A DNA stretch of 10,884 nucleotides from a virus (lineage: Duplodnaviria; Heunggongvirae; Uroviricota; Caudoviricetes). Of this stretch, positions 6,011 through 10,884 are shown in pieces. Made by a program: the position numbers and the translations under genes. The stretch is taken from IMG/VR virus record IMGVR_UViG_2695420485_000001, one strand, 5' to 3'. The notes under the pieces were generated by a model. The model searched no databases, was not told the origin of the DNA, and was given only the letters and a program-made list of their open reading frames with translations. Numbering within the stretch: the stretch's first letter is position 1; each line of letters starts with the position of its first letter.

Positions 6011-6688
6011 ATGGCTGTTCAAATTTCTGTCGAAAACCTTTCCCCTGTTACCTATAACCAGATCCCCGTAATTACTACTGAACTGTTGGCTCACCTTTAC
6101 GGAACAAAAATCAAAAACATTTCTGATAACTTTCTGAACAACACGACGCGATTCATGCCCGGAAAGCATTACTTTAAAATTGAAAAAAACGAATTACGCG
6201 AGTTTAAGAACAGACCCGAAACAATCGGGTTAGTTGGTAAAAATGCCCGCGCCCTCATCCTCTGGACAGAACGCGGCGCAGCCCGTCACGCAAAAATGCT
6301 CGAAACCGATCAGGCGTGGGAAGTGTTCGAAAAACTGGAAGACTGCTATTTCAGCCAGTGCGAGAAAAATACTGGCAAACAAGAGAAGAAGCCCAACGGG
6401 CTTTCCGCAAAAGAAACAGACAGCCTTGTATGGCTGTGGGATTATGCCAACCGCTCACAGGCATTGTTCCGTGAGTTGTATCCCGCATTAAAACTGATTC
6501 AGTCTGGCTATTCCGGCATATGCTACGACTACGGTCATGAGTTCTCGTATGTTATTGGAATGGCGAGAGACGTTTTAATTAATCACACACGAGATGTTGA
6601 TATCAATGAGCCAGACGGACCAACGAACCTTCTGGCATGGGAAAGGCTTAAGAACAAAGAGTTGCCGCCTTCACTGCATCGCTACTGA
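6011..6688 (+). CDS. ORF6N (KilA-N-related) domain protein, 225 aa, with an unrecognised C-terminal domain
   Basis: N-terminal ~100 aa fit the ORF6N pattern ([33 protein letters not shown]...[34 protein letters not shown]). GAGGT Shine-Dalgarno 6 nt before the ATG. Followed by its own terminator. Confidence 0.7.
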
Positions 6689-6703
6689 CAATTGACAACT
6701 TAA

Positions 6704-6731
6704 CAAACCCAGCTTCGGCTGGGTTTTTTAT
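6704..6731 (+). terminator. Rho-independent terminator after the ORF6N gene
   Basis: aacccagc ttcg gctgggtt: 8-bp stem, tetraloop, then TTTTTTATT. Confidence 0.75.
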
Positions 6732-6756
6732 TGCTGAATTTTCAATGTGAGAGGAC

Positions 6757-7485
6757 ATGACAATGAATGAGCTGATAAATAGCAATGCCATCAAAATGAC
6801 AAGCATTGAAATCGCTGAGTTGGTGGGAAGTCGTCATGACAAGGTGAAACAATCCATTGAACGACTGGCTGTTCGAGGTGTGATCCGAAATCCCCCAATG
6901 GTGGTTTTCGAAAAAATCAATAACTTAGGATTACTTCGTGGCGTAGAGGCTTACGTTTTTGAGGGCGAACAAGGTAAGCGCGACAGCATTATTGTCGTTG
7001 CCCAGTTGTCGCCGGAATTCACCGCTCGCCTTGTTGACCGCTGGCGAGAACTCGAAGGGGCAACCGCGAAAATACCACAAACCTTTTCTGAGGCATTGCG
7101 CCTTGCGGCCGACCTTGAAGACCAGAAGGCTGAACTGGAGAAACAGCTTGCTCTCGCAGCACCTAAAGTTGAGTTTGCCGATCGAGTTGGCGAGGCCAGC
7201 GGAATTTTGATTGGAAACTTTGCAAAGGTTGTTGGTATTGGTCCAAACAAACTGTTTGCGTGGATGCGCGATCACAAAATCCTTATTGCTTCAGGTGCCC
7301 GGCGCAATGTGCCAATGCAGGAATATATGGATCGCGGCTATTTCACAGTGAAAGAAACAGCGGTCAATACAAATCACGGAATACAGATATCGTTCACCAC
7401 AAAAATCACCGGGCGTGGTCAACAGTGGCTGACAAGAAAGCTGCTAGATAACGGAATGCTTAAAGTAACAGGGGAGGCTGCTTAA
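6757..7485 (+). CDS. Rha-family phage regulatory protein with a KilA-C/ANT-like C-terminal domain (antirepressor or Roi-like), 242 aa
   Basis: N-terminus [30 protein letters not shown] fits the Rha winged-helix pattern; C-terminus [48 protein letters not shown] fits the ANT/KilA-C pattern. GAGAGGA Shine-Dalgarno upstream. Stop overlaps the ninG start (TAATG). Confidence 0.7.
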
Positions 7486-8090: not shown

Positions 8091-8758
8091 ATATCTACGA
8101 AAGAATTGATGGCAGCAAATACCGAAATATTTGGGTAGTTGGCGATCTGCACGGATGCTACACGAACCTGATGAAAAAACTGGAGACGATAGGATTCGAC
8201 ACCAAAAAAGACCTGCTTATCTCGGTGGGCGATTTGGTTGATCGCGGTACAGAGAACGTAGAATGCCTGGAATTAATCACATTCCCCTGGTTCAGAGCTG
8301 TACGTGGAAACCATGAGCAAATGATGATTGATGGCTTATCAGAGCGTGGAAACGTCAATCACTGGATGCTTAATGGCGGTGGCTGGTTCTTTAATCTCGA
8401 TTACGACAAAGAAATTCTGGCTAAAGCTCTTGCCCATAAAGCAGATGAACTTCCGTTAATCATCGAACTGGTGAGCAAAGATAAAAAATATGTCATCTGC
8501 CACGCCGATTATCCTTGTGACGAATACGAGTTTGGAAAGCCAGTTGATCATCAGCAGGTAATCTGGAACCGAGAACGAATCAGCAACTCACAAGACGGGA
8601 TCGTGAAAGAAATTAAAGGCGCGGACACGTTCATCTTTGGTCATACGCCAGCAGTGAAACCGCTCAAATTTGCCAACCAGATGTATATCGATACCGGCGC
8701 AGTGTTCTGCGGAAAGCTCACATTGATTCAGGTACAGGGAGAAGGCGCGTGGGCATAA
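8087..8758 (+). CDS. ninI: NinI Ser/Thr protein phosphatase (lambda PPase), 223 aa
   Basis: Calcineurin-like metallophosphatase motifs GDLHG, GDLVDRG, GNHE; near-identical to lambda phosphatase as recalled. ATGA overlap with the ninG stop. Confidence 0.93.
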
Positions 8759-9237
8759 GAGAACTAAACCTCACCAAAGAACAGCATGAGTGGCTGAATG
8801 GCTGGCTTGAACTGTGGGGCGCATGGGTTTATTCAGGTCGTCTGGAAAAGCGCATGAGCAGCGTAATAGCGAAGTTCATGGAGAGCGTAGAGCCGGGAAG
8901 AGTTATGACAAGACCAATGTGCAATGATGATGATGGAATGTTGATTTCTCAGGTCGTCGATTCCGTCATGTACATTGACAAGAAAGCCTTTGGCATCCTC
9001 CTCAGCTACTACGCTCATGGTTCTTCCAGGCACGCCATTGCATCTTACTATCATCGCGTCGCAAGACCTCGCAAGATGTTATGCCGGGGCGGCGGGCGCA
9101 TTCAAAAACCATCGCTCGCAACCTGTCGACGGGAAGTTGACGAAATCCTTAATGCCTCGTTGTTTATGATTTACCCGGTTCTGGATAGTGCGTTTAAAAA
9201 CCGGAAACGTGTAGAGAAAATTAAACATGTAGCATAG
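8749..9237 (+). CDS. Q: Late-gene antiterminator Q of the non-lambda (phage 82/21, DLP12 QuuD-like) family, 162 aa
   Basis: Occupies the Q slot between ninI and the PR'/tRNA region. Shares WGAW and P-x-C-x-DDD-x-M-I motifs with DLP12 QuuD as recalled; not similar to lambda Q. Likely GTG start at 8749 preceded by GGAGAAGG. Confidence 0.65.
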
Positions 9238-9327: not shown

Positions 9328-9402
9328 GGGTCAGTCGTATAAAGGTCATTACGGAAGGCTGTTAACCTTCTTATCGTGGTTCGAGTCCACGCTGTCCCGC
9401 CA
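9328..9402 (+). tRNA. tRNA-like gene, 75 nt, anticodon loop CUGUUAA (GUU, Asn-type); one U-U mismatch in the acceptor stem
   Basis: Manual cloverleaf: acceptor gggtcag/ctgtccc (6 of 7 paired), D-arm gtat-aaaggtca-ttac, anticodon stem gaagg/ccttc, T-arm cgtgg-ttcgagt-ccacg, discriminator G, encoded CCA. Confidence 0.55.
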
Positions 9403-9407
9403 AACAT

Positions 9408-9483
9408 GCTGGTTTAGCTCCAATGGTAGAGCAACTGACTTGTAATCATCAGGTCGCCAGTTCGATTCCGGTAGCCGGCACCA
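9408..9483 (+). tRNA. tRNA-Thr-like gene, 76 nt, anticodon UGU (loop CUUGUAA); weakened anticodon stem and one T-stem mismatch
   Basis: Resembles E. coli tRNA-Thr(UGU) as recalled (GAGCAACTGACTTGTAATCA...AGGTC...CCAGTTCGATTCCGGTAG...CACCA). Acceptor gctggtt/agccggc includes two G-U pairs. Only 3 of 5 anticodon-stem pairs form (tcatc instead of tcagt). Confidence 0.6.
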
Positions 9484-9486
9484 TAT

Positions 9487-9561
9487 GCGGGTACCGTATA
9501 ATGGCTATTACCTCAGCCTTCCAGTCTGATGATGCGGGTTCGATTCCCGCTACCCGCTCCA
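9487..9561 (+). tRNA. tRNA-like gene, 75 nt, anticodon loop CUUCCAG (UCC, Gly-type by manual fold); C at position 8 and a C-U mismatch closing the anticodon stem
   Basis: Perfect 7-bp acceptor gcgggta/tacccgc, D-arm gtat-aatggcta-ttac (same architecture as the first tRNA-like gene), T-arm gcggg-ttcgatt-cccgc, encoded CCA. Confidence 0.5.
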
Positions 9562-9573
9562 GATTTATTATCA

Positions 9574-9598
9574 GGCTCGCTTCGGCGGGCTTTTTTTG
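9574..9598 (+). terminator. Rho-independent terminator after the tRNA cluster
   Basis: gctcgc ttcg gcgggc, a 6-bp stem with one G-U, then TTTTTTT. Confidence 0.7.
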
Positions 9599-9649: not shown

Positions 9650-9874
9650 GTGAAAAAGCTGATGGTGACGATTGGTCCGTTCGAAACAGAAGTTAGTTTT
9701 CGTGTCGTTCAGGGGGAGAGTGTACTTGTTGAAGATGTATTTCATGGAAAATCAACAGGTCCTTATGTAAAAGAATATTTTGTCGACGCCACGGATGAAA
9801 ATATTGAGGTGGTGTACGATTCCGTCAATCACCCTAATTTGATCATTAAGGCAAAATTGAAACCACTTTATTGA
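9650..9874 (+). CDS. Hypothetical small protein, 74 aa
   Basis: AGGAGG at 9640-9645, GTG start at 9650 with short 4-nt spacing; alternative ATG at 9662 is far from the SD. No family recognised. Located between the tRNA cluster and the downstream late region. Confidence 0.5.
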   Translation: MKKLMVTIGPFETEVSFRVVQGESVLVEDVFHGKSTGPYVKEYFVDATDENIEVVYDSVNHPNLIIKAKLKPLY

Positions 9875-9926
9875 TCTGAGCGGGAGCAATCATAAAATAT
9901 CTCTGGGTACCCATAAGGAGATAAAT

Positions 9927-10136
9927 ATGTTTGTTGCTGAAGGGGTAATGGAAGATAAGGACAACAAAGGATGTGTTAAAGGTTGGGCTGTGGTAAGAAA
10001 CTCGCCATGGCATCTTGTTGGGGTTTTTGCGACAGAGGAAGACGCGGAAATGGAAGCAAGAAAGACGGGAGATGAGTACGAGGTTCACTATGGCTCGCAT
10101 CGAACAGGAAGTGATGATTTTGTCTGGGGGGAGTAA
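9927..10136 (+). CDS. Hypothetical small acidic protein, 69 aa
   Basis: Strong AAGGAG Shine-Dalgarno 7 nt before the ATG at 9927. Followed by a terminator. No family recognised. Confidence 0.6.
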   Translation: MFVAEGVMEDKDNKGCVKGWAVVRNSPWHLVGVFATEEDAEMEARKTGDEYEVHYGSHRTGSDDFVWGE

Positions 10137-10169
10137 CAGTCGTTTAACCCCAGAATAATCCCGTAACTG

Positions 10170-10195
10170 AGGTCGCTATTGGCGGCCTTTTTTTG
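10170..10195 (+). terminator. Rho-independent terminator after the two small ORFs
   Basis: ggtcgc tattg gcggcc stem-loop followed by TTTTTTT; near-duplicate of the 9574-9598 terminator and its downstream motif. Confidence 0.7.
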
Positions 10196-10326
10196 TATCC
10201 GCGCCACGCCCGGCGCATATCAACCACAGAGCCTTTCGGGGGTGAGCTTACGGAGTGGTCAGTGTGACTTTCTCTGTGGGCAGATCGCTCCCGGGCGTTG
10301 GCTCACCCACCCAAAGGAACGTCACG

Positions 10327-10758
10327 ATGTTTGGTATTTTTGGTAAAAAAGCCCGCCGAGCGGCAGTGGAAATTAAAAAGTTTGAGAAACGTGATCTGGC
10401 ACAGGCGGTTATTAATGCTGCCTATCTGGTGGCCTATGCAGATGGTGAATGTGAGGCTTCAGAGAAAGCGAAGATCGAGCAGGTCTTGCGTAACCAGCCT
10501 GCGTTGTCCGCGTTTACGTCAGAAATTAATGCGATTAGCGCAACCATTATCGGTCAGCTGGATACGAACTTTAAAACTGGTCGTCGAGCGGCATTGCGTG
10601 AAATTGAAGATGTGAAACACGATACGCGTGAAGCGGAAGATGTGCTGGATGTGGCGGTGGCCATTGCGGAGGCAGACGGCGAAATTGAGCCGGAAGAGCG
10701 CAAGGTGCTGGAAGAGATTGCCGGTGTTCTGGGTCTTCGTCTGGAGAATCACCTGTGA
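10327..10758 (+). CDS. TerB-like (tellurite-resistance TerB family) domain protein, 143 aa
   Basis: From the ATG at 10327 (MFGIFGKKARRAAVEIKK...); the track ORF begins at an upstream alternative start. Two VA-x-ADG-E acidic repeats (LVAYADGECEASEKAKIE and VAIAEADGEIEPEERKVLEEIAGVLG) typical of TerB. Confidence 0.65.
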   Translation: MFGIFGKKARRAAVEIKKFEKRDLAQAVINAAYLVAYADGECEASEKAKIEQVLRNQPALSAFTSEINAISATIIGQLDTNFKTGRRAALREIEDVKHDTREAEDVLDVAVAIAEADGEIEPEERKVLEEIAGVLGLRLENHL

Positions 10759-10884
10759 CGGTAAAACTGCGCCTGGCTGTGGCTGCACTCCTGCTGTTTC
10801 TGGTGGTGATGGTGGATTTCACCAGCAGAATCATGTCGGTGCTGGCGGATGGGGTGCTGGTCTGCGGCATTGTGGTATTGCTGT
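10755..10884 (+). CDS. 5' part of a membrane protein (VTVKLRLAVAALLLFLVVMVDFTSRIMSVLADGVLVCGIVVLL...), continues beyond the window
   Basis: GTG at 10755 overlaps the TerB-like stop (GTGA), suggesting translational coupling. Hydrophobic reading frame with no stop before the window end. Absent from the ORF track because it is open-ended. Confidence 0.45.
   Translation, partial: MTVKLRLAVAALLLFLVVMVDFTSRIMSVLADGVLVCGIVVLL

Follow-up and report, generated by a model that had tools for sequence, protein, structure and literature searches.

Proteins with a TerB domain are best known from the ter operon (terZABCDEF), in which TerB is membrane-associated and partners the membrane protein TerC (PMC11003894; Millman preprint) and which, according to the literature, protects against phages and pore-forming colicins. 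TerB domains are also found in the defense systems Shango and Bunzi, where a role in membrane surveillance has been proposed. In phages, several genome papers have noted a lone "terB" and stated its function to be unknown (PMC3728262, PMC8421299, PMC7371120), and Iyer et al. described a "standalone" TerB gene in Erwinia jumbo phages, for which they suggested a role in competition with superinfecting phages (PMC7824862). Here, we describe a TerB gene, tciA, and its overlapping partner, tciB, at the 3' end of a 10,884-nucleotide (nt) stretch of caudoviricete DNA (IMG/VR record IMGVR_UViG_2695420485_000001; hereafter the window), which covers the early-right and late-left portions of a lambdoid prophage. 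The gene pair itself is already known, as an annotated phage family with no assigned function. The conserved, pseudoknotted leader RNA that precedes it is a new element here, absent from Rfam and from the literature searched.

That the two genes are the phage tciA-tciB cassette (PHROGs 632 and 1470) is virtually certain, because they match it in Pfam, PHROGs, PDB sequences and fold, because the pair is annotated as tciA/tciB in phage JLK-2012 and in P1 (where, according to GenBank notes, the names were given by homology), and because a near-identical genome holds a complete tciB. That reference is the Escherichia coli chromosome NZ_CP148357 (locus L003; 99.7% identity over 1.7 kb). The parts of the cassette are as follows.

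10327..10758, plus strand: tciA, encoding a 143-amino-acid cytoplasmic TerB-domain protein (Pfam, PHROG, PDB-sequence and fold matches)
10743..10746, plus strand: GGAG Shine-Dalgarno sequence of tciB, within the 3' end of tciA, 8 nt before the GTG start (read from the sequence)
10755..10884, plus strand: tciB, the 5' 43 of 55 codons, encoding a DUF3927 inner-membrane micro-protein (Pfam, PHROG and L003)

TciA matches the Pfam family TerB (PF05099) over residues 26-138 (E=2.9e-16; 60.2 bits against a cut-off of 24.4), phrog_632 over residues 1-143 of 143 (E=3.8e-69) and, in phmmer, the nuclear magnetic resonance structure of Klebsiella TerB (2JXU; E=3e-7). Its AlphaFold2 (AF2) model is all-helical, with eight helices (predicted local distance difference test score [pLDDT] 88.3; predicted template modeling score [pTM] 0.83), and finds its best Foldseek matches in the PDB in 2H5N (probability 1.0; template modeling score 0.55-0.64) followed by 2OU3, a COG3793 tellurite-resistance protein; both are TerB-like structures. 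The protein is 100% identical to TciA of phage JLK-2012 and begins with a hydrophobic plus basic N-terminus (MFGIFGKKARR). Its two acidic repeats start at residues 36 (LVAYADGECEASEKAK) and 114 (AIAEADGEIEPEERKV), and in alignments of homologues (n=12 and n=25) D39, G40, E46, D117, G118 and E124 are invariant or nearly so; this ADG...E pair would make up the metal or ligand site proposed for TerB. A recurrent frameshifted allele of tciA, reading MFGIFGKKSPQSGNGN and then a stop, was seen in 27 IMG/VR and metagenome loci (e.g., L079).

The TGA stop of tciA (10756-10758) overlaps the GTG start of tciB at position 10755 (GTGA), and the tciB frame is hydrophobic and open through the window end at 10884. 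In the reference chromosome the gene is complete (L003 10555-10722; 55 amino acids, MTVKLRLAVAALLLFLVVMVDFTSRIMSVLADGVLVCGIVVLLWPVIKRNSLHNA), with its stop 38 nt past the point at which the window ends. The 43 residues within the window match Pfam DUF3927 (PF13064; E=6.8e-12; 45.6 bits against a cut-off of 25), and the complete protein matches phrog_1470, "TciB-like," over positions 1-54 of 54 (E=4e-30). The overlap is not a chance arrangement, because every one of the 227 related loci whose TerB gene is intact has an adjacent small hydrophobic open reading frame (ORF). Of these loci, 207 have the GTGA junction and a further 19 a 1-nt ATG overlap, so that the junction is tight in 226 of the 227; in the remaining locus the start lies 20 nt past the stop. 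The family alignment of TciB is basic at either end and has two hydrophobic segments with a short polar turn (DFTSR) between them; D21 and D32-G33 are conserved, and P45 is invariant. By the positive-inside rule, the basic ends and the two hydrophobic segments suggest a two-helix hairpin with both termini inside the cell and acidic residues within the membrane. Natural in-frame fusions of TerB and DUF3927 also occur (P0007, P0065). In phage 434, a DUF3927 gene without TerB lies 3' of an unrelated 247-amino-acid multi-pass membrane protein that belongs to no Pfam family (L002 4138-5370).

A preliminary description of this DNA, made from its letters alone, had proposed a TerB-family protein with two acidic repeats, joined through a GTGA overlap to a hydrophobic frame that runs off the window. 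The TerB assignment held in profile, PDB-sequence and fold tests, both repeats are present with near-invariant Asp, Gly and Glu positions, and the overlap and open frame are read directly from the sequence. The accompanying idea of a coupled membrane partner stands as far as the conserved, coupled start is concerned, but the partner is a micro-protein of the DUF3927 family and not a large protein. A quick stop of the downstream frame had been named as an outcome that would speak against the idea, and such a stop is what the reference genome contains. The observation is thus confirmed and its interpretation partly supported.

The closest described relatives of the cassette are the tciA-tciB(-tciC) genes of phages P1 and P7, which have both protein families in the same order with an overlapping stop and start, lie likewise downstream of tRNA-Asn and tRNA-Thr genes and encode a TciA 41% identical (P1 protein) to that of the window. 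TciC (beginning MGFWDFADKHPIV) has no counterpart after tciB in L003, where the only small ORF is unrelated and a match to a small RNA (sRNA) of the STnc100 family is found instead. TerB of the ter operon shares with TciA the domain, the size and the paired acidic motifs, and in its membrane association and its partnership with a membrane protein it resembles the arrangement here. The similarity to 2JXU is nevertheless distant, no other ter gene accompanies the cassette, and the partner is a 55-amino-acid micro-protein rather than the multi-pass TerC. DjlA, in which an N-terminal transmembrane helix precedes a TerB-like domain and a J domain, likewise tethers a TerB-type domain to the inner membrane, whereas the membrane element of the cassette is a separate polypeptide. 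An identity of TciA as a DjlA-like co-chaperone was rejected: the match to NF006948 is weak and local (28.7 bits against a cut-off of 162; residues 88-138), and TciA has no J domain. Shango and Bunzi also use a TerB domain, the one for which membrane surveillance has been proposed, but no helicase or ATPase partner genes are found here, and the cassette is carried by phages, virulent ones included, and not by defense islands.

Upstream of tciA lies the leader.

10199..10329, plus strand: conserved 131-nt structured 5' leader, ending at the tciA ATG (conservation, covariation and no Rfam match)

This leader is better conserved than the coding region of tciA, and one and the same leader stands in front of both TerB lineages (141 and 89 loci), which share only about 41% identity. 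In related loci its length ranges from 126 to 137 nt; because these lengths differ by non-multiples of three, the leader is non-coding. For the same reason, positions 10255-10326 are not part of tciA, and the start at GTG 10255 given in a mechanical ORF list (167 amino acids) was rejected; homologues and RefSeq begin at ATG 10327. A search among the fetched loci gave, besides the window copy, the following.

L085, 1653-1791: leader copy
L086, 1366-1503: leader copy
L092, 3583-3717: leader copy
L229, 13784-13922: leader copy
L221, 7091-7226: leader copy
L138, 3175-3311: leader copy
L105, 966-1077: leader copy

An nhmmer profile and a covariance model detected diverged copies in two jumbo phages, ChrisDB and pSal-SNUABM-04, again ahead of tciA; other diverged copies, in phage late regions, lie upstream of KilA-N, antirepressor-N and Rha-like genes in the same prophages. 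The same profile and covariance-model search found no leader in P1, P7, N4-like phages, LIET2 or ZY21, so that P1 and P7 differ from the window in this respect too. Once, in a Pseudescherichia contig, the leader directly precedes a gene for an NMT1-like (TAXI-type) periplasmic binding protein (L104 6113-6955). A gene of the same family lies directly 3' of tciB in the Salmonella jumbo phage pSal-SNUABM-04 (L085 2533-3327).

The leader contains four covarying helices, each of which occurs in several distinct compensatory states; PK1 pairs the loop of H1 with a downstream segment, and H4 crosses both H2 and PK1.

H1, hairpin stem: GCGCC/GGCGC (window); CACATC/GATGTG; TCTGTC/GACAGA; TGCGC/GCGCA
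PK1, H1 loop with downstream segment: CGCCC/GGGCG (window); CGCTC/GAGCG; CGCAC/GTGCG; TCTCAC/GTGAGA; TCACAC/GTGTGA
H2: CCACAGAG/CTCTGTGG (window); CCGTAGAG/CTCTACGG; CCAAAGA/TCTTTGG; CGAGAG/CTCTCG
H4: GGGTGAGCT/GGCTCACCC (window); GATGAGCCCTG/CAGGGTTCATC; GTGAGCCTG/CAGGCTCAC

In an alignment of 29 sequences, 95.1% of cells pair. Both sides have changed in 14 of 27 pairs, compared with 4.0 +/- 1.5 in shuffles (0/500) and at most 7 in slid controls, with the qualifications that H1 and H2, unlike PK1 and H4, were part of the model that built the alignment and that the sequences are related. Folding of the single sequence is not significant alone (z = -1.73). RNAalifold run on close relatives returns a nested structure that differs in part and contains a single covarying pair, and the picture becomes clear only with the diverged copies. 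Among 4,227 Rfam families, none matched at the leader at E<=0.1, and the best match at E<=10 on a 206-nt stretch containing it was a plant microRNA (E=3.1); in the literature searched, the leader sequence appears in no relevant context. The order H2, H4, H3 resembles P1, P2, P3 of a hepatitis delta virus-like ribozyme. That identity was not adopted, since the loop of the upstream hairpin joins the fold through PK1 and no Rfam ribozyme matches.

Next to H2 stands an invariant CCUUUC that is complementary to the invariant Shine-Dalgarno sequence of tciA, AAAGG, which suggests that pairing between the two sequesters the Shine-Dalgarno sequence. The leader, multi-pseudoknotted through H1, PK1, H2 and H4, may thus gate translation initiation by means of CCUUUC. 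In this it resembles known leaders that sequester the Shine-Dalgarno sequence, such as translational riboswitches and RNA thermometers, which also lie directly 5' of the start codon and present, within a covarying fold, a run of invariant pyrimidines complementary to the Shine-Dalgarno sequence. It differs from them in belonging to no Rfam family, in its crossing helices (H2 with H4, and PK1 with H1 and H4) and in also preceding the unrelated KilA-N, antirepressor-N, Rha-like and NMT1-like genes. We put only a little short of an even chance on the leader being a real, functional and hitherto undescribed class of cis-regulatory RNA in phages. Such an RNA could sense a ligand, an ion or temperature; that it specifically senses a ligand seems to us rather doubtful.

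The cassette is widespread. It was found in 840 of 5,426 complete E. coli genomes (about one in seven), mostly enterohemorrhagic (EHEC) or Shiga toxin-producing (STEC) strains, and the genomes with a match have a median of six matching places each. The IMG/VR scan with the TciA alignment covers near-identical E. coli prophage loci only, and diversity was therefore sampled from GenBank phage records. A tblastn search with TciA returned 131 of these, among them temperate phages (P1/P7/D6, Klebsiella and "Actinobacillus" phages), virulent N4-like phages (FSL SP-076, Pollock and Zuri), jumbo phages of Erwinia and Salmonella, and phages of Pseudomonas, Pantoea and Vibrio. Across phages sharing the pair and its junction, identity between the TerB proteins is only 30-50%.

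In 15 of 17 diverse phage loci, a hydrophobic ORF of 50-73 amino acids starts between -8 and +4 nt from the TerB stop; the other two, PMBT3 and Vibrio K481, have no small hydrophobic partner at that position. Eleven of the partner ORFs align with TciB of the window and carry its DF/DS...DG...WP motif, and the copies of LIET2 and ZY21 pass the Pfam threshold for DUF3927. Two jumbo-phage partners align more weakly, are without both Asp residues and are not significant against DUF3927. In the Pseudomonas phages AF and Zuri, an unrelated small protein with a single transmembrane segment takes the place of TciB (L089 2232-2453; L095 2243-2446). This protein has one N-terminal transmembrane segment followed by a conserved CxxYGxQTERETxYAxFVGCMV motif, and it matches no Pfam family.

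Two features bear on how the cassette is expressed.

8749..9237, plus strand: antiterminator gene Q (Pfam Phage_antitermQ, E=3.2e-24; RefSeq annotation of the near-identical locus)
10169..10194, plus strand: intrinsic-terminator-like hairpin (GAGGTCGCTATTGGCGGCCTT; hairpin 10169-10189) and T-run, directly 5' of the leader (terminator scan)

A terminator hairpin with a different stem sequence stands at the same position in other lambdoid loci and in the Fostie, Klebsiella and pPE4 loci, and in jumbo phages the 3' end of a tRNA-Cys takes its place. A promoter scan found no sigma-70-like site between the hairpin and tciA. Because a terminator lies upstream and no promoter-like site follows it, tciAB is most likely transcribed by Q-modified polymerase in lytic growth, as the gene order suggests. 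The preliminary description's expectation that expression would rise on induction is consequently the likely mode, through a step that depends on this reading of the gene order. In contrast, its view that the placement after Q is unusual did not survive, as this is an annotated cassette of many E. coli genomes in a standard lambdoid accessory slot. P1 differs in that its tci genes, like those of P7, lie within the C1-repressed ban operon, as opposed to the probable Q-dependent late region here.

The database names imply a different setting, in which TciA and TciB are expressed in the lysogen and the host gains tellurite and/or colicin resistance by lysogenic conversion. The enrichment of the cassette in EHEC and STEC genomes fits this proposal. 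However, terC, terD, terE and terZ were found neither in the window nor within the 19.7 kb covered of the near-identical locus, and the literature describes the other ter genes as necessary for resistance to tellurite (PMC8421299). The upstream terminator and the lack of a promoter-like site also speak against expression in the lysogen, as do the control of the P1 pair by a C1-repressed ban operator and the carriage of the pair by N4-like and jumbo phages that are strictly virulent and have no lysogenic state. We therefore consider lysogenic conversion improbable. The ban operon setting in P1 and P7, the virulent carriers and the absence of other ter genes together favor a function at the inner membrane during the lytic cycle over lysogenic tellurite resistance.

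The best overall explanation, to which we give slightly better than even credence, starts from the observed identity and anatomy of the cassette and is conjectural in its further steps. A promoterless cassette behind an intrinsic terminator would most likely be transcribed only in lytic growth, by Q-modified, terminator-resistant RNA polymerase. Translation of tciA would then probably pass through the pseudoknotted 131-nt leader, in which CCUUUC can pair with AAAGG, and tciB would be translated by coupling, so that the two proteins should be made in matching quantities. In the probable topology of TciB, two helices form a hairpin whose ends both face the cytoplasm, with the conserved Asp residues inside the membrane; TciB would hold TciA at the inner face, or signal to it there, in parallel with TerB and TerC or with the transmembrane-TerB unit of DjlA. 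We think it probable that TciA and TciB form a two-protein unit of this kind, membrane-associated and used in the lytic phase. Its target during lytic development would be the inner membrane of the infected cell. Its most likely role, which we advance only tentatively and by analogy, could be exclusion or protection against secondary envelope insults, such as DNA entry by superinfecting phages or pore-forming colicins, because the ter operon, in which TerB acts, has these phenotypes.

The position of the pair between Q and the lysis genes of lambdoid prophages, with late expression likely, also invites the suggestion that TciB modulates holin triggering, as an antiholin-like or proton motive force-buffering protein, with TciA as its cytoplasmic regulator. 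In the "Actinobacillus" phage pPE4 the pair lies directly 5' of the holin gene, and in Fostie it lies near it. Yet in P1/P7, N4-like phages, jumbo phages and LIET2 the pair is far from lysis genes, beside genes of replication or nucleotide metabolism or tRNA genes, and in E. coli an esterase gene of 1.85 kb lies between the pair and the holin. The preliminary description had singled out a known lysis-cassette gene as the identity that would count against it; neither protein matches a holin, antiholin or spanin family (Pfam, PHROG), and the esterase gene and an sRNA match precede the class II holin, so this identity was rejected. The PHROGs category of TciB is "moron." A part in lysis timing is on balance unlikely.

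Since TerB domains belong to Shango, Bunzi and the phage-inhibiting ter operon, and since virulent phages of several host genera carry the pair, the phage protein could instead be a counter-defense decoy that imitates or titrates host TerB sensors (the Ter system, Shango or Bunzi), leaving the infection undetected at the membrane. A decoy would have no obvious need for a dedicated membrane partner with conserved intramembrane Asp residues, and the match of TciA to defense models is marginal; we judge this quite unlikely. Membership of a known defense system was likewise rejected, there being a marginal PADLOC match only and no partner genes.

Several points weigh against the account of a lytic-phase, Q-driven membrane unit with a protective role. 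Both CCUUUC and AAAGG are invariant, and covariation cannot test their pairing. The AF2 model of the natural fusion P0007 renders the TciB part as one long, low-confidence helix (pLDDT 49-72) and not as a hairpin. The promoter scan did not locate a late promoter, and Q-dependence is read from gene order. PADLOC returned for TciA only PDC-S48, at E=0.0031 over 35 residues, and nothing for TciB. The literature yielded no experiment that gives tciA or tciB a phenotype, the names in P1 being based on homology only, and nothing relevant on DUF3927 or on induction of the cassette. In a CRISPR interference screen, all three tci genes of P1 were non-essential (PMC10695390), and in P1-like phage-plasmids the operon is variable and often lost, with about half of one subgroup lacking it (PMC9603915). 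Finally, 36 of 270 leader-linked tciA copies (about 13%) are frameshifted or truncated, from which it follows that selection on tciA in resident prophages is relaxed rather than strict.

The last three of these findings would also fit cargo that has no function or is in decay and is merely carried along in a slot prone to recombination. Against such decay, the pair and its coupled junction are conserved although the TerB proteins have diverged to 30-50% identity, catalytic-site-like residues are invariant and the RNA leader covaries; we regard it as highly improbable, and retain the lytic-phase membrane unit as the preferred explanation.

The surrounding prophage is of a familiar lambdoid type. 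Ahead of Q, the window carries cI, cro, cII, O, P, ren, ninB, antirepressor genes, ninG and a Ser/Thr phosphatase gene; downstream of Q come a tRNA cluster and two small ORFs, followed by tciA and tciB.

9328..9561, plus strand: tRNA-Asn, tRNA-Thr and tRNA-Gly cluster, between Q and the accessory genes (Rfam for all three; RefSeq Asn/Thr/Gly)
9650-9874: ORF74, phrog_2571 fragment
9927-10136: ORF69, phrog_4280, with a promoter-like site at 9871-9898

ARAGORN reported only tRNA-Asn and tRNA-Gly; the tRNA at 9408-9480, which it missed, scores 49 bits in Rfam and is annotated as tRNA-Thr by RefSeq in the near-identical genome. Terminator hairpins at 9573-9592 and 10169-10189, each followed by TTTTTGTATC, bracket ORF74 and ORF69. 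The segment 9573-10199 looks like an inserted accessory-gene ("moron") unit, because phage JLK-2012 is without it. Further upstream, 5759-5957 matches isrK (76.6 bits), C4 antisense RNA (75.1 bits) and c4-a1b1 (50.6 bits) directly 5' of P22AR-C and KilAC antirepressor genes (6011-7485), an arrangement that is a P1/P22-type antisense immunity module within a lambda-like early region.

In the reference chromosome, tciB is followed by the STnc100-family match, a SASA-family carbohydrate esterase gene, a class II holin gene, a lysozyme gene and a spanin gene, and O157:H7 EC4115 has, in this order, Q, tRNA-Ile/Arg/Arg, TerB, DUF3927, esterase and holin. The cassette thus lies in the place where lambdoid phages usually carry accessory genes (Q, tRNAs, cargo, SASA esterase, holin). 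We take this to be the slot held by stx in Stx phages, and the Q gene followed by a tRNA-Ile/Arg/Arg trio, as in the O157:H7 example, is presumably the arrangement found upstream of stx there.

Genes for tRNAs adjoin tciAB in unrelated phages as well (L004, L087, L085, L086, L097, L339 and window 9328-9561). They are Asn/Thr/Gly or Ile/Arg/Arg in lambdoid phages; Asn and Thr upstream and Ile downstream in P1/P7; Trp and Cys upstream and Tyr/Gln/Ile/Met downstream in the jumbo Machinavirus; and Arg in ZY21.

The STnc100-family match (L003 10730-10899; 104 bits) begins 8 nt past the tciB stop and ends before the SASA esterase gene. It may be a PasD-type sRNA of the Zhu/Storz preprint, which places TerB within 10 kb of PasA/PasC sRNAs, and it could be a 3' untranslated region product of the tciAB transcript. 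The leader itself was considered as a Pas-linked sRNA and rejected, as it is not an Rfam STnc100-like element and the STnc100 match lies 3' of tciB.

Taken by themselves, the two genes are ordinary, a catalogued phage accessory cassette. With one TerB protein and one 55-amino-acid membrane partner, however, this is the smallest natural TerB system seen here, and since it is conserved in temperate lambdoid phages as well as in virulent N4-like and jumbo ones, it offers a tractable model of how TerB functions and is coupled to the membrane. If the leader is what it appears to be, it would be a new regulatory RNA for accessory genes of phage late regions, in the prophages of pathogenic E. coli, and, should it sense a signal, that signal would hint at what the TerB protein responds to.

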